Positions 1 through 5,886 of a stretch of DNA of 5,886 nucleotides are shown in pieces. A model generated the notes under the pieces. That model did not search any database and was not told the DNA's origin. It saw nothing but the letters and a program-made list of their open reading frames with translations. Each line of letters begins with the position of its first letter. The first letter of the stretch is position 1. The stretch is taken from the IMG/VR virus record IMGVR_UViG_3300045988_004583, positions 1 through 5,886 of that record; one strand, 5' to 3'. The translations under genes and the position numbers were made by a program. The DNA comes from a virus.

Positions 1-141
1 GATACTATATGGATGGCACCCTGACGACTTAAAACCAATACACAAGCTGTCAAGACACGGTCATTACACAAGTGATAAGCTGATAAAAATCTGGGGACAA
101 GGGGCAGTCGACATCGCACAGGCAACACCAGAGACATATAA
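1..141. repeat. Terminal direct duplication, left copy (circular-genome assembly overlap)
   Basis: Base-by-base comparison shows 1-141 (gatactatatggatggcaccctgacg...caccagagacatataa) is identical to 5746-5886. The duplication lies inside one continuous reading frame (rep). Confidence 0.95.
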
Positions 142-529
142 TTACGTTGCGGGGTATGTGACCAAAAAACTGTACGGCAACGACAAAAAGCGTTACCAAA
201 AAATGGGTTTAATACCACCATTTTGCACAATGAGCCGAAAACCGGGACTTGGAGACAAATGGTTCCAAGAGCACCAAGAAAAACTCTGGCAGCAGGGATA
301 CATACAGCTCACCAACGGCAAGAGAGCAGCCATCCCAGAATACTACTGGCGAAAACTGGAAGCTGAAAATCCCGAAAAAGCATGGAGAATCAAAAAATAT
401 CGGCAGGAAAAAGCCATAGCGTCCTTAATCGAGAGAAACGCGGAAACCGATAAACCATACGCAGAGCAACTAAAGGACAAAGAAGCATCCATGTCCAAAA
501 AGATGAGCAAAGCCAAAGGCGTATTTTGA
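1..529 (+). CDS. VP4: Replication initiation protein VP4 (HUH rolling-circle endonuclease), C-terminal portion; continues from 5255..5745 across the circular junction
   Basis: The frame is open from position 2 (codons ata cta tat gga tgg...) with no stop until TGA 527-529. It is the same frame as track ORF 158..529, whose GTG 'start' is internal. It encodes ...ILYGWHPDDLKP...ETYNYVAGYVTKKLYG..., and YVAGY (Tyr codons 143-145 and 155-157) is the Y-x3-Y active-site pair known from phiX174 protein A. Joined to 5255..5745, the complete protein is 339 aa. Confidence 0.93.
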   Translation, partial: ILYGWHPDDLKPIHKLSRHGHYTSDKLIKIWGQGAVDIAQATPETYNYVAGYVTKKLYGNDKKRYQKMGLIPPFCTMSRKPGLGDKWFQEHQEKLWQQGYIQLTNGKRAAIPEYYWRKLEAENPEKAWRIKKYRQEKAIASLIERNAETDKPYAEQLKDKEASMSKKMSKAKGVF

Positions 530-587
530 CACATTGGTGTCACTCAGCCAAGTAACTATCAAGTAAGCTACTTGGCTGAGTATTTTT
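527..587 (+). terminator. Tandem hairpins plus T-tract: rho-independent terminator after VP4
   Basis: Hairpin 1 is TGACAC(527-532)/GTGTCA(537-542) with loop attg, and it includes the VP4 stop codon. Hairpin 2 is a perfect 13-bp stem, ACTCAGCCAAGTA(542-554)/TACTTGGCTGAGT(569-581), with a 14-nt loop, followed by aTTTTT (582-587). Confidence 0.75.
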
Positions 588-600
588 ACCATTTATTGGA

Positions 601-641
601 ACACGCACGCACGCGCACGAAATCGCGCACATGCGCGCGTG
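601..641. repeat. GC-rich alternating purine/pyrimidine island (two tracts)
   Basis: 601-619 acacgcacgcacgcgcacg (19 nt) and 624-641 cgcgcacatgcgcgcgtg (18 nt) both alternate Pu/Py perfectly and are separated by aaat. CGCGCAC is directly repeated at 612-618 and 624-630. CACGCGC(610-616) is complementary to GCGCGTG(635-641). Confidence 0.8.
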
Positions 642-684
642 ATTATTATTATTTATTATTTATTTGTTGTAGTCGTAGTAGTAG
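642..684. repeat. Simple trinucleotide-periodic repeat (ATT/TTA)n then (GTA/GTC)n
   Basis: attattattatttattatttatttgttgtagtcgtagtagtag, read directly from the sequence. Confidence 0.8.
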
Positions 685-695
685 GGAGTGTTGAA

Positions 696-779
696 ATGTT
701 GATAACAATGAATAATTATCCTTGGAACGATATTTTTTTACTGATTTTAATGTTGATACTCTTGTGGATAAGTTGTTGA
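696..779 (+). CDS. Candidate 27-aa hydrophobic peptide (MLITMNNYPWNDIFLLILMLILLWISC); hypothetical
   Basis: ATG 696 is preceded by the SD-like GGGAG (684-688) at 7-nt spacing, and the stop is TGA 777-779. It is below the ORF-track size cutoff. The hydrophobic core runs from I13 to I25. No dedicated promoter was found, and the region is T-rich and repeat-rich, so the ORF could be fortuitous. Confidence 0.25.
   Translation: MLITMNNYPWNDIFLLILMLILLWISC
763..771 (-). promoter_or_regulatory. Perfect consensus DnaA box (TTATCCACA on minus strand)
   Basis: The + strand reads tgtggataa, whose reverse complement TTATCCACA is the canonical high-affinity DnaA box. Neighbouring repeat copies differ from TTWTNCACA by 1-3 positions, for example 697-705 -> TTATCAACA and 847-855 -> TTTTCAACA. 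Confidence 0.6.
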
Positions 780-800
780 ATTGTTGAAAGTGTAGCAAAA

Positions 801-820
801 TGCACAAAACCATTTGTGCA
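801..820. promoter_or_regulatory. Perfect 8-bp inverted repeat (TGCACAAA-acca-TTTGTGCA): operator-like palindrome or ssDNA hairpin
   Basis: 801-808 TGCACAAA, loop 809-812 acca, 813-820 TTTGTGCA. It sits between the third and fourth repeat pairs. Confidence 0.6.
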
Positions 821-861
821 ACTTTTAGTGGAAAACTTGTTGAAAGTGTTGAAAACGCAAT

Positions 862-935
862 TAGAGGCAGCTCGGCAGCTGGCCGAAAAGTTGCGTCATG
901 CTCTTCGCACGGCGCACCGCGCCTAGCGCATGACC
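862..935. other. Second GC-rich structured island (tandem GGCAGCT, nested inverted repeats)
   Basis: GGCAGCT occurs twice, at 866-872 and 874-880. GTCATGC(894-900) is complementary to GCATGAC(928-934). The hairpin GGCGC(911-915)-acc-GCGCC(919-923) is nested inside that pair. The island is embedded in AT-rich surroundings. Confidence 0.6.
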
Positions 936-972
936 TACAAGGCAAAATTCTTCTAATTTTTTTCAAAAAACC

Positions 973-1001
973 TTGACTTTATCGAAAAAATATGGTAGAA
1001 T
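973..1001 (+). promoter_or_regulatory. Strong sigma70/SigA-type promoter P1 with extended -10
   Basis: TTGACT (973-978), a 17-nt spacer, then TAGAAT (996-1001) with TG at 993-994 (TGnTAGAAT). An A/T-rich UP-like tract (aattcttctaatttttttcaaaaaa) lies upstream. The first gene's SD is ~10 nt downstream. Confidence 0.75.
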
Positions 1002-1027
1002 AAATCATAGAAAGGAAGGTGCTAAAG

Positions 1028-1213
1028 ATGACACACTACTACGAACTTAGAAGTATTGAAGATGACGGAACAATAAAGATTGCGCTCAAAATCTCAGCAG
1101 AACCAAAATACGCAAAACAAAGAGCAAAAGAATACGCAAAACGAAACCCGGGGCTATACTCACTAGAAAGAGTCGAAAAAGTGGCAATGTACTTAACTGA
1201 AAAGGAGAACTAA
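1028..1213 (+). CDS. Hypothetical small protein, 61 aa (accessory ORF A)
   Basis: ATG 1028 follows the SD AAAGGAAGG (1011-1019) at ~8 nt. The track's GTG at 1019 lies inside the SD and is unlikely to be the start. The protein MTHYYELRSIEDDGTIKIALKISAEPKYAKQRAKEYAKRNPGLYSLERVEKVAMYLTEKEN matches no family I recognise. It is the first gene after P1 and is tightly packed with the next ORF. Confidence 0.6.
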   Translation: MTHYYELRSIEDDGTIKIALKISAEPKYAKQRAKEYAKRNPGLYSLERVEKVAMYLTEKEN

Positions 1214-1214
1214 C

Positions 1215-1403
1215 ATGGAAAACACATTCAAAGATTTCAGCACCGAAGAACTCAAAAAAATGAAATACGAATGGAAACACTGCAACGGACGTTGTGAAGA
1301 ATGCAAGTTCAAGCGAATAGACTACCACTGCAGAACGGTATACGACGAAATCAAAAAAGAAATAAAAAGGAGAGAATCCAGAGACGTAGAAAAGAGGGCT
1401 TGA
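1215..1403 (+). CDS. Hypothetical Cys-rich small protein, 62 aa (accessory ORF B; putative metal-binding)
   Basis: ATG 1215 follows the SD AAGGAG (1202-1207) at 7 nt, one nt after the upstream stop (taa c atg). The motif is H22-C23-x3-C27-x2-C30-x7-H38-C39, with charged Lys/Glu-rich flanks. A hairpin and T11 follow immediately. Confidence 0.65.
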   Translation: MENTFKDFSTEELKKMKYEWKHCNGRCEECKFKRIDYHCRTVYDEIKKEIKRRESRDVEKRA

Positions 1404-1421
1404 CAGGCCCTTTTTTTTTTT
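1391..1421 (+). terminator. Rho-independent terminator after accessory ORF B
   Basis: GGGC(1396-1399) pairs with GCCC(1407-1410). The inner pairs are T1400:G1406 and T1401:A1405, with loop gac. The stem can be extended by A/T pairs (1391-1395 with 1411-1415). An uninterrupted T11 run follows (1411-1421). The GC core is short, so strength is uncertain. Confidence 0.55.
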
Positions 1422-1429
1422 AGTATAAT
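1400..1429 (+). promoter_or_regulatory. Consensus sigma70-type promoter P2 (TTGACA-18-TATAAT) overlapping the terminator
   Basis: TTGACA at 1400-1405 is a perfect -35, an 18-nt spacer consists mostly of the T-tract, and TATAAT at 1424-1429 is a perfect -10. It lies upstream of the structural-gene block. Confidence 0.7.
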
Positions 1430-1510
1430 AAAGACAGTTAAACGGCGAGAAAGTGCTATCTTTTACAAACGCCATTTATACAAAATAATCTTAGAAAGAG
1501 GTGAACCGCT

Positions 1511-1633
1511 CTGACCTTCAAAGAAATCAACGCGCTGTTTAACCAAATCCGCAAGATCTTAGCTATGCTAGACAAGATTTATCACATGTTGGAGAACAAA
1601 GAAAACGAGTTCCAGACCTTCAACGGAGACTGA
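1511..1633 (+). CDS. Candidate 40-codon ORF with possible CTG start (…TFKEINALFNQIRKILAMLDKIYHMLENKENEFQTFNGD); hypothetical
   Basis: The strong SD AAAGAGGTGA (1495-1504) has no ATG/GTG/TTG at proper spacing. CTG 1511 lies 7 nt after GAGGTG and opens a frame that runs to TGA 1631-1633, 12 nt before the next gene's ATG. The only in-frame ATGs (1565, 1586) lack an SD. Confidence 0.3.
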   Translation: MTFKEINALFNQIRKILAMLDKIYHMLENKENEFQTFNGD

Positions 1634-1645
1634 GAGAGGCCAAAA

Positions 1646-1867
1646 ATGAAAACATGGAACGTAAGAGACCAGACCGATACGAACCTCATGGAGGAACTGA
1701 CGCGAACCTACAAGGAGATCGACGCCGCATACAAGCTGCTACGACAGGCCGCAAAGTACGACGACGCAAAATTTTACCTTGACATGATATTCCGTAAAAA
1801 GGCAAAAGCAACGGAAATTGAGGTGGAAATCCTCAGAAGGGAAATCAACCATGGGAAAGAGGAGTAA
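1646..1867 (+). CDS. Hypothetical protein, 73 aa (predicted helical)
   Basis: ATG 1646 follows the SD AGAGAGG (1633-1639) at 6 nt. Its end overlaps the next ORF by 17 nt. It is on the coding strand in a compact gene array. I recognise no family. Confidence 0.6.
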   Translation: MKTWNVRDQTDTNLMEELTRTYKEIDAAYKLLRQAAKYDDAKFYLDMIFRKKAKATEIEVEILRREINHGKEE

Positions 1868-1970
1868 AGTCCACAAGACCAAAGACGCAAAAATCTACAA
1901 CAAGACCGCACGAAAGACCAAGGCAATCAACCTTGGAAGCGGAGCAATGCGAGGAGGCATCCGACTGTGA
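1851..1970 (+). CDS. Small highly basic DNA-binding/packaging protein, 39 aa (phiX174 J / gokushovirus ORF8-VP8 analogue)
   Basis: It is not in the ORF track because it is too short. The span from ATG 1851 to TGA 1968-1970 encodes MGKRSKVHKTKDAKIYNKTARKTKAINLGSGAMRGGIRL, with 8 Lys, 4 Arg and a single acidic residue. From memory, the C-terminal MRGGIRL-type ending and the position upstream of VP3/VP1 match the small basic proteins of gokushoviruses. Confidence 0.7.
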   Translation: MGKRSKVHKTKDAKIYNKTARKTKAINLGSGAMRGGIRL

Positions 1971-2209
1971 GCACCAATGTATATGGCATCTTCGACACCT
2001 GCGTGATGGGCTATATCACCATCTTAACCGAACGCGAAGATAAAGTGGCAGAGCGTAACTTTAAGATCGCGCTGACCGACGAACACAACATCATGAGCAA
2101 AACGCCAAGCGACTACCGGCTTGTAAAGCTGGCAAAATTCGACGAAAAAACCGGCCTGTTTGAAAACGAAAAGGAGAACATCTTCGATGGCATTTCGCTC
2201 AATAAGTAA
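1967..2209 (+). CDS. Small nonstructural protein, 80 aa (VP5-like, putative)
   Basis: GTG 1967 follows the SD GAGGAGG (1951-1957) at 9 nt and overlaps the upstream stop as GTGA. The pattern ..YGIFD..(x)..AERNF......P.DY.LV.LA.FDE.TG.F resembles, from memory, a conserved small protein found between rep and VP3 in gokushovirus genomes. Confidence 0.6.
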   Translation: MSTNVYGIFDTCVMGYITILTEREDKVAERNFKIALTDEHNIMSKTPSDYRLVKLAKFDEKTGLFENEKENIFDGISLNK

Positions 2210-2681
2210 CTGGAGACAGACCGCAACGACGAAGCCGACCGAGGCCGGAGAAAGTGTAAGGCGAACATATCTCTGGGAACGCAACGAAAAAGGCGAAAAG
2301 GTGCTGAGGCTTGACCAGACGATTGACCAGCAGGCCGAAATCGACAGCTATCTCGAAGAAACCAAGCTGGAAAACATCATCCGGCGGGCAAGCATCGATC
2401 CGGACATTGCGGCACGACTCGTACCAGACATGGGAAACGGAATCCAAGACTACACCGAAGCACCGCAGACACTGGCGGAACTCCAAAACATCATGCTGAG
2501 GGCGGAACAGATTTGGGAAGAGGTGCCGAAAGACATCAAGCTCAAATTTGATAACGATGTCGATAAATTTATTGCATCGTTTGGCACAGTCGAATGGGCG
2601 AAAAATCTGGGCATCTACAAAGAAAAGCAGGCCGAAGCCGAAGGAACTAAGAAAGCAGAAGGAACGGAGGCCAAACAGTGA
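2187..2681 (+). CDS. VP3: Internal scaffolding protein VP3 (164 aa from ATG 2187)
   Basis: ATG 2187 follows the SD AAGGAG (2171-2176). The track's upstream TTG at 2160 has no SD. The protein is acidic and helical, and its C-terminal ...VPKDIKLKFDNDVDKFIASF... resembles the conserved VP3 C-terminal region. It lies directly upstream of VP1 and overlaps it by 4 nt, the typical gokushovirus synteny. Confidence 0.75.
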   Translation: MAFRSISNWRQTATTKPTEAGESVRRTYLWERNEKGEKVLRLDQTIDQQAEIDSYLEETKLENIIRRASIDPDIAARLVPDMGNGIQDYTEAPQTLAELQNIMLRAEQIWEEVPKDIKLKFDNDVDKFIASFGTVEWAKNLGIYKEKQAEAEGTKKAEGTEAKQ

Positions 2682-4369
2682 ACAGAAACAAAGACGCAGG
2701 ATTCAACCAAGTACCGCGGCTGGACATCACACGAAGTCGATTCAAAAGACGGCAAGATGTCAAACTGACGTTAAACGCAGGACAGCTTATCCCGTTTTAC
2801 GTCGATGAAGTGTTACCGGGTGATACCTTTAGCATCGACCAAGCAGCTATCATCCGCATGACAACGCCAATCTTTCCAGTCATGGATAACTGTCACATGG
2901 ACATTTATTACTTTAATGTCCCATGTCGCATCCTTTGGGAACACTTCAAGCGCTTTATGGGTGAGAACGACACTGGGCCGTGGGCACAAACTCAGGAGTA
3001 CACCATTCCGCAAATCAAAATAACTGGTACGGCGGAAAAACCAGCACCATACGAAGGAAGCATCATGGACTACATGGGCATTCCTACCAAAGTGAGCAAG
3101 GGGGAGGACACCGCCTTCAGCGTAAACGCACTTCCTTTCCGCGCTTACGCCATGATATGGCAGGAGTGGTTCAGAGACCAAAACGTGGACAATCCGGCCA
3201 TAAACAGCACCGCAGACGCGACCGTGAATTATACGGACGACGAAACCAAGGGAATGGACGCGGCAACACCGGATTTGGAGTACATTCTGCAAAACGCATA
3301 CACGGGCGGCAGGCCTCTGCCTGTCAATAAGTACCACGACTACTTCACATCGGCTTTGCCTTCCCCTCAGAAAGCGGGAGAACCGGTTACAATTCCACTA
3401 ATCGGAAATGCACCTGTGAAGATGTACGCCAACAAAGAACTAAGCAACCCAATGCCACTAACGGGAGGAAACACAGCCCACGCAGTAACAAATCTGAAAG
3501 CAAACGCCAAAAGTGTAATCGACACCACGCAGGACCCTATGAGCGGGCTCATTGCGAACATCGGCTCAATGGATTTTACGGGATACATGGGAGCGGAACT
3601 GAACAACGTTACAAGTGCAACCATCAACCAACTGCGGCAAGCATTCCAAGTACAAAAATATTACGAAGAACTCGCACGCGGCGGCAGCAGATACCGTGAA
3701 ATGATTTATTCGCTGTTTCATACCAAAATCAGCGATAAAACGGTACAGATACCGGAGTACCTAGGCGGCACGAGAATCACCATCAACATGAGTCAGGTTA
3801 TCCAGACCAGTGGCACGACCGCAGAGAGTCCGCAGGGCAACACGGCAGCAGTGAGCGTAACGCCGTACAATGGCAGTATGTTCACCAAGAGCTTCGAAGA
3901 ACACGGTTTTGTTATCGGTGTATGCTGCATCCGACATGACCATACATATCAGCAGGGTCTCGAACGGATGTGGAGCCGGAAAACCAATCTGGATTTCTAT
4001 TACCCGGTCTTCGCAAATCTGGGAGAGCAAGCTATCCTTAAAAAGGAGCTGTATCTCACCGGCACCGCAACGGATGAACAAGCATTCGGCTACCAAGAGG
4101 CATGGGCAGAATACCGTATGAAACCAAACAGAATCAGCGGCAAATTCCGCAGCAATGCAACGGGAACGCTGGACAGTTGGCACTACGGCGACAACTACAC
4201 GAAAACGCCAAGCCTCAGTCAGGCATGGATGAAAGAGGGAGACTCCGAAATTCAGAGAACTCTGGCAGTCGACAATGAACCTCAGTTTATCATGGACACG
4301 GTCATTGACAACACCAGCGTCAGACCTATGCCTATGTACAGTATTCCGGGACTCGTCGACCATCACTAA
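2678..4369 (+). CDS. VP1: Major capsid protein VP1 (F-like jelly-roll), 563 aa
   Basis: GTG 2678 follows the SD GGAGG (2666-2670) at 7 nt. The N-terminus NQVPRLDITRSRFKRRQDVKLTLNAGQLIPFYVDEVLPGDTF is the hallmark Microviridae capsid N-terminal signature, and its length is typical of gokushovirus VP1. It is the longest ORF and is followed by a strong terminator. Confidence 0.95.
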   Translation: MNRNKDAGFNQVPRLDITRSRFKRRQDVKLTLNAGQLIPFYVDEVLPGDTFSIDQAAIIRMTTPIFPVMDNCHMDIYYFNVPCRILWEHFKRFMGENDTGPWAQTQEYTIPQIKITGTAEKPAPYEGSIMDYMGIPTKVSKGEDTAFSVNALPFRAYAMIWQEWFRDQNVDNPAINSTADATVNYTDDETKGMDAATPDLEYILQNAYTGGRPLPVNKYHDYFTSALPSPQKAGEPVTIPLIGNAPVKMYANKELSNPMPLTGGNTAHAVTNLKANAKSVIDTTQDPMSGLIANIGSMDFTGYMGAELNNVTSATINQLRQAFQVQKYYEELARGGSRYREMIYSLFHTKISDKTVQIPEYLGGTRITINMSQVIQTSGTTAESPQGNTAAVSVTPYNGSMFTKSFEEHGFVIGVCCIRHDHTYQQGLERMWSRKTNLDFYYPVFANLGEQAILKKELYLTGTATDEQAFGYQEAWAEYRMKPNRISGKFRSNATGTLDSWHYGDNYTKTPSLSQAWMKEGDSEIQRTLAVDNEPQFIMDTVIDNTSVRPMPMYSIPGLVDHH

Positions 4370-4383
4370 ACACGAAAGGGGGA

Positions 4384-4414
4384 AAGCCCGGGGCAAAACC
4401 CCGGGCTTATTTTT
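4384..4414 (+). terminator. Rho-independent terminator/attenuator after VP1
   Basis: A perfect 10-bp GC-rich stem AAGCCCGGGG(4384-4393)/CCCCGGGCTT(4399-4408) with loop caaaa, then aTTTTT (4409-4414). It abuts the VP2 ATG at 4415. Confidence 0.8.
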
Positions 4415-5254
4415 ATGGGACTCTTAACAACGATAGGAATACCATTGCTCAAGCAAGCAATACCAACAATCGCAAGCTGGGGCATAAACAAGCTTTTAGG
4501 CGGCAATATGTCCGAAAGCAGCGGCGGCAGTACGCAGCACAACGAGAGCAGCAGCAGCGGCGGCGGACAGAGCCAAAGCGAGAGCGGAGTAAACCGAGAA
4601 CAAAACTTACAGGACTGGAACAATATGCTTGGAGCAATCCAAGAAAATATGAAAAGCCAGCAAAAATTTAACCGCCGAAGCATGTATGAGCAGATGGGGT
4701 ATAACACCATGGCAGCAATCACACAAGGTGTGTATAACCAGATAAGCAACAATGCAGCGATGAGCTACAACAGCGCAGAAGCGGCAAAAAATCGAGCATG
4801 GCAAGAGCAAATGAGTAACACCGCATATCAAAGAGCGGTGGAAGATATGCGCAAAGCGGGAATCAATCCTATCCTAGCATACCAGCAAGGCGGGGCAAGT
4901 ACACCGGGCGGAGCACAAGGCACTATCAGCGGGGCAAGTATGGGACTTGCAAGCAGTAGTGCAGCAAGCGCAAGCGCTCTTGGAGTAAGCCAAAACCACA
5001 ACAACACATGGAGCAAATCAGAATCGGCATGGTACAACGCGGCGCAAGCAGTCGGAGACGCAACAAGCTGGCAACACACAAGTGCAGACAAAGCGTTTAA
5101 CGCGTTCAAGAACATCTTCAATGACCTGAGCAGCCTCAATGCCGGAACAGGCGGCGCAGGAAGAAAACCAACCAAAGATGAGCTCGAATACAAGCCGGGA
5201 AGAGACTTCATCGGGAGCAAAAACGTCGAATTTTGGAAAGGAAAACTTAAATAA
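4415..5254 (+). CDS. VP2: DNA pilot / minor capsid protein VP2, 279 aa
   Basis: It has a hydrophobic Gly/Ile/Leu-rich N-terminus, a Ser/Gly/Gln low-complexity linker, and the conserved core ...AWQEQMSNTAYQRAVEDMRKAGINPILAY... typical of Microviridae VP2/H-type pilot proteins. It lies immediately after VP1. Confidence 0.85.
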   Translation: MGLLTTIGIPLLKQAIPTIASWGINKLLGGNMSESSGGSTQHNESSSSGGGQSQSESGVNREQNLQDWNNMLGAIQENMKSQQKFNRRSMYEQMGYNTMAAITQGVYNQISNNAAMSYNSAEAAKNRAWQEQMSNTAYQRAVEDMRKAGINPILAYQQGGASTPGGAQGTISGASMGLASSSAASASALGVSQNHNNTWSKSESAWYNAAQAVGDATSWQHTSADKAFNAFKNIFNDLSSLNAGTGGAGRKPTKDELEYKPGRDFIGSKNVEFWKGKLK

Positions 5255-5886
5255 ATGGGATGCAATAAACCGTTAATCCGGTTTTATGTACCTCATGACA
5301 GAGAGGCGAGTGGGCGGGTGTACTCACTCGCCTCTTTTAACGAGATACACAAGACCAAATTGACCTACGAAAATTTAATGTACCGCAAAGATGTAATGTT
5401 GATACCATGTGGACAATGCACCGGATGCAGACTACGCAAGCGAAAGGACTGGAGCACACGGATGGAGCTGGAAGCATACGGCCACAGCAAAGAAAGCATC
5501 TGGTTTATAACACTGACTTATGACGATGACCATGTGCCAACGCAGGACACAGAAACAGGCGAAATCTACAAAGGCGGTGTAAACGTCTGGAAAGGCACCT
5601 CAGAGCGTCCAAGAACGGCGCAAACACTGAGTATAGAGGAAACTCAACTATTTATCAAAAGGCTCAGAAAGGCCGTAAAAGATCCTATAAGATACTTTTT
5701 AGCAGGTGAGTACGGAGACAACACAGCAAGACCACACTACCACATGATACTATATGGATGGCACCCTGACGACTTAAAACCAATACACAAGCTGTCAAGA
5801 CACGGTCATTACACAAGTGATAAGCTGATAAAAATCTGGGGACAAGGGGCAGTCGACATCGCACAGGCAACACCAGAGACATATAA
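5255..5886 (+). CDS. VP4: Replication initiation protein VP4, N-terminal portion (runs off window; continues at 1..529)
   Basis: ATG 5255 directly abuts the VP2 stop (TAAATG). The frame stays open to the window end, so it is absent from the ORF track. It encodes MGCNKPLIRFY...IPCGQCTGCRLRKRKDW...IWFITLTYDDDHVP...YFLAGEYGDNTARPHYHMILYGWHP. CGxCxGCR, FxTLTYD and the HUH motif (HYH, 5735-5743) are the canonical Microviridae Rep motifs. Confidence 0.93.
   Translation, partial: MGCNKPLIRFYVPHDREASGRVYSLASFNEIHKTKLTYENLMYRKDVMLIPCGQCTGCRLRKRKDWSTRMELEAYGHSKESIWFITLTYDDDHVPTQDTETGEIYKGGVNVWKGTSERPRTAQTLSIEETQLFIKRLRKAVKDPIRYFLAGEYGDNTARPHYHMILYGWHPDDLKPIHKLSRHGHYTSDKLIKIWGQGAVDIAQATPETY
5302..5338 (+). 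promoter_or_regulatory. Terminator-like 11-bp hairpin plus T4 inside the 5' end of VP4 (attenuator or ssDNA structural element)
   Basis: AGAGGCGAGTG(5302-5312) is perfectly complementary to CACTCGCCTCT(5325-5335) across a 12-nt loop, and the sequence continues as ...CTCTTTT (to 5338). It begins 47 nt after the VP4 start codon. Confidence 0.55.
5746..5886. repeat. Terminal direct duplication, right copy (circular-genome assembly overlap)
   Basis: Identical to 1-141. The implied unit genome length is 5745 nt, within the Microviridae size range. Confidence 0.95.

Follow-up and report, generated by a model that had tools for sequence, protein, structure and literature searches.

Organization of the cassette

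We analyzed a 5,886-nucleotide (nt) stretch of viral DNA (IMG/VR record IMGVR_UViG_3300045988_004583, positions 1 to 5,886), referred to below as the window. It represents a complete gokushovirus genome, which is circular and 5,745 nt long; the remaining 141 nt are an assembly overlap at the ends. Every recognised gene in it lies on the + strand. Our subject is a putative accessory-gene cassette at positions 973-1429, composed of a predicted promoter (P1), two short open reading frames (ORFs A and B) and a predicted terminator which runs into a second promoter (P2). The features are listed below (SD, Shine-Dalgarno sequence; aa, amino acids; T11, a run of eleven T).

973-1001, + strand: predicted promoter P1 from a consensus scan; -35 box TTGACT at 973-978, 17-nt spacer, extended -10 box TGgTAGAAT at 993-1001
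1002-1027, + strand: leader with the SD of ORF A (GGAAGG, 1014-1019), near-identical across loci
1028-1213, + strand: ORF A, 61 aa; SD GGAAGG 8 nt before the ATG
1195-1214, + strand: linker between A and the next gene, ACTGAAAAGGAGAACTAAC; the final codons of A form the SD of the downstream gene
1215-1403, + strand: ORF B, 62 aa; SD AAGGAG 7 nt before the ATG; starts one base past the stop codon of A
1382-1421, + strand: right flank with a hairpin at 1388-1418 (core GGGC/GCCC, loop TTGACAG) and T11 at 1411-1421
1400-1429, + strand: predicted promoter P2; TTGACA at 1400-1405, 18-nt spacer, TATAAT at 1424-1429; 12 of 12 consensus positions matched

P1, both ORFs, the hairpin with T11 and the second promoter were all found where the first-pass annotation of this DNA had placed them. 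It had also described a self-contained transcription unit outside the gokushovirus core, and we came to the same view, as the predicted signals are conserved and core homology was not found. Searches with Pfam, PHROG and tblastn revealed no homology of A or B to gokushovirus core families, these and the other libraries assigned neither of them to a structural protein, and both genes are absent from the closest relatives.

The right flank also encodes the last codons of B (DVEKRA*) and its TGA stop codon. The terminator hairpin has a folding energy of -15.4 kcal/mol. Its loop is the -35 box of P2, and the TGA of B lies inside that hexamer. P2 is predicted to serve the downstream block, namely ORFs X and C, the J-like peptide, VP5, VP3 and VP1.

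We observed the hairpin in 8 loci. The loop TTGACA was invariant and the stem changes were compensatory (GGGC/GCCC, GGGGC/GCCCC, GAGGGC/GCCCTC, CAGGGC/GCCCTG, GAGGGT/ACCCTC and GGGGAC/GTCCTC), and seven of the eight folded at -15 to -18 kcal/mol. The TGA in the loop is the common stop codon of unrelated cargo ORFs, B, B' and D. The tail DVEKRA* is common to B of the window and D of locus L027 (loci are given by our own labels) and belongs to the flank; B orthologues elsewhere end with …RRE(K). On the other side of the slot, the conserved left flank is ACTTGTTGTAGTAGTAGTAGTAG...P1, and the conserved right flank comprises the TTGACA hairpin and ORF X. The leader, AATCAcAGAAAGGAAGGTGCTAAAGATG, was near-identical in the window, L018, L016, L017, L020, L026, L027 and L035. 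P1 together with the leader (…TTGAC(T/A)-17-TGnGTAnAAT…AATCACAGAAAGGAAGGTGCTAAAGATG) precedes the first cargo gene in approximately 20 gokushovirus loci, whatever the cargo, and the linker ACTGAAAAGGAGAACTAAC stands before B, B', D, F or an M15 peptidase gene, depending on the locus. Judged from these sequences, the promoter and terminator signals appear to belong to the slot and not to be moved with each gene.

The strong SDs and the TGn-extended -10 box suggest a Firmicute-type host. Promoters and ribosome-binding sites of Bacteroidota look different.

In L034 (5573-5626, wrapping to approximately 1-70) and L036 (1036-1110) B stands alone between a P1-like promoter and a hairpin. The promoter is TTGACA-17-TGTATAAT, and an 11-bp hairpin is followed by a T15 run; in L034 the T-run block is duplicated. 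This arrangement indicates that the design of an insulated single-gene cassette recurs independently.

A and B are protein-coding genes

A and B are real genes under purifying selection. The ratio of nonsynonymous to synonymous substitution rates (dN/dS, pairwise Nei-Gojobori) was 0.04-0.54 for A, including approximately 0.05 at dS near 1, and 0.14-0.48 for B. Many columns of the A alignment were invariant. Both ORFs thus proved to be conserved coding genes, in line with the two small proteins of the first-pass annotation.

One might regard the two ORFs as chance open frames in an A-rich regulatory spacer, where only the promoter and terminator matter. Both are unannotated in every GenBank record having a homologue, and a long antisense frame (1086-1475, 129 aa) exists at the same place. 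This explanation is effectively refuted by dN/dS values in the + frame down to 0.04 at dS near 1, by good SD sequences, by residues invariant family-wide (including four cysteines in 24 of 24 sequences of the B family), by the confident predicted fold of A (pLDDT, the predicted local distance difference test, of 95) and by the + strand holding all recognised genes of the window. We do not regard the antisense frame itself as coding: it is the + frames that are under selection, and the recognised genes are all on that strand. The antisense frame is a by-product of the A-rich coding strand. We also rejected GTG 1019 as the start of A. This codon reads GCG in L028 and L019 and is therefore not conserved, which leaves ATG 1028 as the start codon.

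Library scans covered A, B and every member of both family alignments. They gave only sub-threshold noise (zf-CCCH_6, Myb_DNA-bind_4, DUF5417 and rSAM_ahbC). PADLOC, run on A, B, ORF C and B', returned 0 families, that is, no match to a known defence or counter-defence protein. A and B represent two new protein families, found so far essentially only on microvirus-sized contigs, nearly all of them approximately 5.3-6.1 kb long.

Contents of the slot in related genomes

In relatives which share 83% nt identity with the window across 85% of the genome, A and B were missing and both flanks aligned. In same-genus relatives (VP4 91-95%, VP1 80-86%) the left alignment extended to 857, 936 or 1031, and the right alignment began at approximately 1380 or at 1437. 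We catalogued the slot in 26 loci. The cargo families were A, B, B', D, E, F and M15 peptidase, and the contents of individual loci were as follows.

L018: P1, A at 83% identity, B' (an unrelated gene of 65 aa) and the same terminator
L003: B' alone
L001: an A-like gene alone, 39% identical
L028: a diverged A and B pair, 56% and 55% identical
L029 and L030: B alone
L004: an E-like gene and D
L005-L007: E
L008: a remnant left by deletion, in which the -35 box of P1 is joined to the 3' end of B'
L002: a decayed E gene

In distant lineages the same slot contained A with M15 peptidase, A with D, A with F and M15, B with M15, A with B and M15, or B alone. The remaining cargo genes had the following positions.

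Cargo B', 65 aa: L018 2872-3069, L003 4020-4217
Cargo D, 56-61 aa: L004 4442-4612, L027 890-1060, L016 747-932
Cargo E, 59 aa: L005 1551-1730, L006 and L007 1566-1745
Cargo F, 55 aa: L009 1708-1875

These four families (D, E, B' and F) are unannotated and have good SDs, and no homologue of any of them is known. For D, a β-β-α-β pattern is predicted, as for A. We considered D as a diverged A, given this similar pattern and an 'A-D/E-P-x-x-A-R/K' motif, and rejected it at an hhalign probability of 0.1%.

Cargo that differs or is decayed in close relatives is dispensable, and its turnover is the fastest in the genome. The presence or absence of cargo at the same position in close relatives is the pattern expected of a moron, an accessory gene of the kind discussed below. 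The moron-type layout proposed earlier is upheld, and the comparison goes beyond it: the slot proved hypervariable within the genus, and its modules are transferred horizontally between lineages.

A and B were found apart more often than together, and in most genomes each stands alone or with other partners. The order A-then-B occurs in 3 of approximately 9 distinct B contexts, beyond the window only in L028 and L035. Such a recurrence is to be expected, since no other gene takes the first position as often as A. Being mostly apart, the two form independent modules, and their pairing is not obligate. The earlier proposal of a regulator pair, or of a complex of A with B, gained no support from this comparison.

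Horizontal exchange of the modules

Three segments of the window matched genomes whose core proteins are only distantly related.

955-1222 (P1 and A): 88.5% nt identity to L016; VP1 44% and VP4 41% at the aa level; dS of A 0.15
1199-1378 (B): 93% nt identity to L021; VP1 51% at the aa level; dS of B 0.20
1382-1420 (terminator): 95% nt identity to L027; VP1 43% at the aa level

Outside the matched segments L016, L021 and L027 aligned to the window only as short islands of 65-84% identity. High nt identity of the modules against low identity of VP1 indicates recent horizontal exchange, so the cassette has a history distinct from that of the flanking genome, which is a further property of morons. 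The left edge of the L021 match lies at 1199 and the right edge of the L016 match at 1222. The breakpoints fall at three short conserved sequences, the leader, the ACTGAAAAGGAGAACTAAC linker and the hairpin, which are likely sites of homologous exchange.

Microviruses are described as having very limited accessory repertoires, with gene exchange beyond the genus being rare (PMC9239249). The same study notes one peptidase exchange and small proteins of approximately 65 aa which link families. The alignments presented here point to repeated exchange beyond the genus at this slot, in contrast with that description.

We read the region as an insulated accessory-gene cassette in a hypervariable slot of a gut gokushovirus, whose cargo most likely consists of host-interaction factors, and estimate the probability of this reading at approximately 0.6.

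Properties of protein A

The A family comprised at least 73 clusters at 90% identity, nearly all on contigs of up to 6.2 kb. The AlphaFold2 model of A had a pLDDT of 95 and predicted β1 (3-10), β2 (16-24), an α helix (26-39) and β3 (43-49). A had no match in Pfam, PHROG, NCBIfam or PADLOC, nor in the PDB by sequence profile. Foldseek against the PDB gave nothing significant for A (best E = 0.45 over the models of A and B). Against BFVD the sole significant fold match was an uncharacterized Microviridae protein (E = 1.6e-5). Weaker BFVD matches were small uncharacterized phage proteins and T4 Dmd (E = 0.07-0.3, template modelling (TM) score 0.6-0.76); the likeness to T4 Dmd was weak and topological (E = 0.27, TM 0.61). 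These weaker matches point to a common small α/β topology and no more.

Properties of protein B

The B family comprised 23 clusters at 90% identity in a profile search, the longest contigs being 5.3-5.9 kb. B is rarer than A, with approximately 5 credible clusters among 1.84 billion representatives in an exhaustive HMMER scan. No match of B among IMG/VR viral contigs was confirmed; its relatives came from large protein collections.

The first-pass annotation had pointed to a compact metal-binding signature in B, which in the window reads H22-C23-x3-C27-x2-C30-x7-H38-C39. The cysteine cluster stood up well: the four cysteines (C23, C27, C30 and C39, spaced C-x3-C-x2-C-x8-C) were invariant in 24 of 24 sequences. 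The histidines did not, as some members have Asn in place of H22 and position 38 varies, and the predicted ligand set is therefore the four cysteines (Cys4). The AlphaFold2 model (pLDDT 73) has a helix at 10-21, a cysteine-rich knot at 22-38 and a long helix at 39-61. Charged residues make up 52% of B, which is net positive and without a signal peptide. The simplest reading for a cytoplasmic protein of 55-62 aa is that the Cys4 cluster is probably a structural zinc site clamping two helices; an iron-sulphur cluster would be the alternative.

As regards the zinc ribbon or knuckle proposed earlier, B has four clustered cysteines, it matched no zinc-finger profile or fold, and its model is helical and not a β-ribbon. 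B had no family or fold match in Pfam, PHROGs, NCBIfam, PADLOC, PDB profiles or Foldseek against the PDB (best Pfam E = 0.17). PDB profile searches gave only chance matches to the cysteine pattern, namely a sea-anemone toxin and a Kunitz-type seed protein. The public labels of B relatives, 'polyferredoxin' and 'trypsin inhibitor…Kunitz', are artefacts of the same kind and spurious, because the matches follow the cysteine pattern by chance. We also rejected B as a radical-SAM (S-adenosylmethionine) protein, and regard the resemblance of CX3CX2C to that motif as spurious. The score to TIGR04546 was only 15.6 bits (cutoff 650), and B has 62 aa and is a predicted helical hairpin. Radical-SAM proteins carry CX3CX2C within a TIM-barrel core and typically exceed 200 aa.

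B as a zinc finger, A, or both might instead be regulators internal to the phage. They would act on its transcription, translation or replication, for instance through autoregulation of P1 and P2 or through binding to the iterons. Small phage zinc-finger regulators such as Ogr of P2 and Com of Mu would be the model. B is small and net positive, with the Cys4 cluster followed by a basic helix, and the cassette, placed between two promoters, adjoins a strongly conserved region with iterons. The spacing C-x3-C-x2-C-x8-C is unlike the C-x2-C...C-x2/4-C of Ogr and Com, and no match to a DNA- or RNA-binding family was found by sequence or fold (best Pfam E = 0.17). Moreover, same-genus relatives lose or replace A and B yet keep the promoters, the iterons and the core genes. 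We consider internal regulation less likely than a role directed at the host, and improbable in itself.

Proposed function of the cassette

The slot lies between the conserved non-coding region that follows VP4 and the structural gene block. P1, of the sigma-70 type with an extended -10 box, and the leader would drive whichever cargo is there, and P1 would fire from the double-stranded replicative form whenever this form is present. The hairpin and T-run would halt most transcripts, and P2 would restart transcription for the structural block. The cargo consists of 0-3 small genes which are unrelated to one another, and recombination at short linkers would bring them in, remove them or exchange them. 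The cargo of the window would be a chimera of a P1 and A module, found also in very distant gokushoviruses, a B module of another lineage and the right flank. The cargo proteins would bind host targets and inhibit host defence or another host process. Early expression, which had been considered earlier, gained no support, as nothing in the sequence indicates timing.

A role of A and B in host interaction or counter-defence seems most likely to us, because small size, unrelated alternatives at one locus, rapid turnover and lateral spread together mark conflict genes in other phages. Separately promoted genes which the basic lytic cycle can do without would fit such a role. Of the functions suggested in the first-pass annotation, host takeover, anti-defence and exclusion are all plausible. 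More tentatively, the slot may be a counter-defence or host-manipulation island, with A and B as the first members of two new families of small inhibitors; this is possible, though we would not expect it. If it were true, B would be a zinc-clamped helical hairpin which binds a component of host defence or transcription, and A would be a minimal β-β-α-β binder. Plug-in cassettes with a shared 'grammar' of promoter, linker and terminator would be traded between gokushovirus genera. Even phages of 5-6 kb would run a modular arms-race locus, and microviruses would be more mosaic than held.

Several points speak against the cassette reading or its functional part. The functional part is drawn from architecture and turnover, and neither a library, PADLOC included, nor a fold match points to a target of A or B. 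The model of B is of only moderate confidence, and metal binding is inferred from the four invariant cysteines. The activity of the promoters and the terminator is likewise read from consensus and conservation. The window contained 8 promoter-like sites, at chance level compared with 7.1 expected in shuffles, so support for the promoters comes from conservation. Recognition by sigma-70 is assumed. The survey of the A family used a word-indexed search and was possibly incomplete. Finally, in many genomes A lies directly 5' of the M15 peptidase gene, sometimes translationally coupled to it, and this adjacency could mean a lysis-related role instead.

A lysis-accessory role is the main rival. The P1 unit would then be a lysis operon, in which A, B or both aid lysis, for example because they regulate, export or time M15, or block cell-wall synthesis as soluble 'protein antibiotics' where M15 is missing. 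Lineages with M15 keep the peptidase in the same slot, downstream of P1. A overlaps the start of M15 in L010 and L020 and lies 5 nt away from it in L017 and L026, B overlaps it in L031 and L032, and A, B and M15 are consecutive in L035. The M15 translations are without an obvious signal peptide, so some route across the membrane is needed, and we know of no lysis gene for this clade. The proteins themselves fit this role poorly. Both are highly charged and contain no hydrophobic stretch in their sequence, and thus cannot be a holin or an E-like amurin. A or B is present where M15 is missing (window, L018, L028, L029, L012 and L021). L003 and L005-L007 are without A and B, and the cargo of L008 and L002 is decayed; these genomes are recorded as complete and must still lyse their hosts. 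On balance we find a lysis module unlikely.

Superinfection exclusion or competition between phages, in which the cargo would shield an infected or lysogenic cell from related microviruses, is also less likely. Hypervariability and rapid turnover are the product of arms races between phages, and a resident genome expressing the cargo would be well served by an independent constitutive promoter. Gokushoviruses also use a hypervariable region for exclusion, according to papers which cite Kirchberger et al. (2021, PNAS). The published determinant is the hypervariable part of the pilot protein VP2, and not the slot. The lineage shows no sign of being temperate: among 185,579 reference genomes scanned with the A profile none had an integrated copy, and the scan returned only a weak match on a 6.2-kb contig binned in a metagenome-assembled genome of Planctomycetota. 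L026, the one contig in which bacterial DNA is attached, is probably an assembly chimera. We regard an exclusion function as doubtful, and prefer the reading of the cargo as host-interaction factors.

The contig L026 (ENA ERZ27271783 k141_34196, 19.1 kb) contains a full gokushovirus with A and M15, joined to Meth_synt_2, SDF and RelA_SpoT. The junction is at approximately 7018, and the final 121 nt repeat at 7018-7138. We did not count it as evidence for lysogeny. It is more likely an assembly chimera than a prophage, because the junction lies inside VP1 and a 121-nt terminal repeat is present.

Other features of the genome

Four metagenome contigs carry an identical genome, for example ENA ERZ27272146 k141_174744. 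The closest GenBank records are gokushoviruses from human, pig and monkey faeces, with 80-85% nt identity over 83-92% of the genome. The genes and regions around the cassette are as follows.

5255, wrapping to 529, + strand: VP4 (replication); tblastn and precomputed Pfam annotation
530-1018: conserved non-coding region
approximately 1511-1633 (frame of 1502), + strand: small conserved ORF X, kept in relatives
1646-1867, + strand: ORF C
1851-1970, + strand: J/VP8-like DNA-binding peptide; Pfam and PHROG
1967-2209, + strand: VP5; Pfam and PHROG
2187-2681, + strand: VP3; Pfam and PHROG
2678-4369, + strand: VP1; tblastn and precomputed Pfam annotation
4415-5254, + strand: VP2; Pfam and PHROG

ORF X encodes approximately 38-40 aa (…LTFKEINALFNQIRKILAMLDKIYH…). 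Essentially every related genome has it, without annotation. An in-frame ATG, GTG or TTG is missing in the window, L001, L003 and L008, and the GTG after the SD is shifted 1 nt out of frame relative to L018. The invariant GCTCTGAC suggests that its start may be a CTG 7 nt after GAGGTG.

The conserved non-coding region contains an element of approximately 215 nt (655-860 in the window) with a core at 661-684 and iterons at approximately 689, 773, 781, 837 and 846. It consists of an invariant ACTTGTTGTAGT(A/C)GTAGTAGTAG followed by at least five GTTGAAA iterons and a small hairpin (801-820). Copies were found on the - strand in L016 (4930-5141), L019 (5543-5744), L020 (3902-4112), L010 (5373-5583) and L031 (3678-3882), where the element lies between VP2 and VP4, on the strand opposite to all genes. 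It is 72-77% conserved at the nt level in gokushoviruses with VP1 only approximately 43% identical, and had no match in Rfam. This element is a candidate origin or protein-binding array.

A 27-aa hydrophobic ORF (MLITMNNYPWNDIFLLILMLILLWISC) with an SD-like GGGAG lies within the element at 696-779 and is kept in L001 and L018. It could be a tiny membrane peptide and could then bear on the mechanism of lysis. Coding is argued against, because the element is inverted in other clades.

Two further hairpins are conserved. A GC-rich inverted repeat, GTCATGC…GCATGAC, lies at 895-934, approximately 40 nt 5' of P1. Distant lineages retain it, and there it appears as the recurrent pseudo-translation 'SSHGAPRLAHDL'. 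A hairpin at 542-581 (16 bp, 94% complementary), approximately 12 nt past the stop codon of VP4, is probably the VP4 terminator.

VP2 of the window was compared with that of L003, L008, L028, L029 and L030. It was only approximately 51% identical in relatives with VP1 and VP4 at 84-95% identity, and 80-87% identical in others. Such a bimodal pattern agrees with the hypervariable region published for the pilot protein, which is related to exclusion.

Comparison with known systems

Morons, in the concept of Hendrix and Juhala, are extra genes in lambdoid and other double-stranded DNA temperate phages, and expression from the prophage is their classical property. The slot genes resemble them in being inserted between core blocks and flanked by a predicted sigma-70 promoter and a predicted intrinsic terminator. 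The cargo is also missing in close relatives, dispensable and horizontally acquired. The slot differs in that it lies in a single-stranded DNA (ssDNA) microvirus of 5.7 kb with no evidence of lysogeny, in that its promoter and terminator are conserved whatever the cargo and do not travel with each gene, and in the fusion of its terminator with the promoter that follows.

Lytic phages have hypervariable accessory or anti-defence regions, such as anti-CRISPR loci and the regions of early-gene plasticity in phages like T4 and T7. These contain small ORFs with fast turnover, whose products are typically single-domain binders of host proteins. The likeness lies in very small unrelated ORFs at a fixed position with conserved flanks, shuffled between related phages. 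Unlike anti-CRISPR loci, the slot has no marker gene such as aca, and none of its genes matched a described protein of defence or anti-defence.

Gene expression in microviruses of the phiX174 type depends on the strength of constitutive promoters and leaky intrinsic terminators, and not on a temporal switch. The window shares the layout of gene blocks under successive promoters and terminators on a single coding strand. We know of no swappable cargo unit in phiX174, and a terminator loop serving as the -35 box of the next promoter appears, to our knowledge, to be undescribed for this layout.

The gokushovirus VP2 region is described, in papers which cite Kirchberger et al. (2021, PNAS), as hypervariable and as acting by blocking DNA entry. 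It is similar to the slot in belonging to the same virus group and in being a hypervariable segment thought to be driven by conflict. The VP2 region lies within the VP2 coding sequence. The slot, by contrast, forms its own transcription unit between VP4 and the structural block, and its genes stand alone. We rejected the slot as the 'defensive hypervariable region' of that paper, because that region lies in VP2. Accessory M15 peptidase genes of Microviridae and occasional recombination between families are reported by Roux et al. (2012, PMC3394797) and Kirchberger et al. (2022, PMC9239249). M15 occupies the same slot in other lineages. The window differs from these cases, since it is without a peptidase and A and B are unrelated to peptidases. 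Conceptually, the slot is a variant of phage morons and accessory plasticity regions and not a new category.

Microviruses are among the most abundant gut phages, and their accessory genes are almost unstudied. The slot offers a defined place to look for genes of microvirus host interaction or counter-defence. It yields two well-delimited families, of which one has a confidently predicted fold and the other an invariant Cys4 site. It also represents a compact reusable design, in which unrelated genes of 55-65 aa pass between lineages with capsid proteins only 44-51% identical, and this natural insulated expression cassette may be usable for engineering small ssDNA phages. In summary, even should the proteins prove unremarkable, the locus documents mosaicism driven by recombination in a group thought to be largely non-mosaic.

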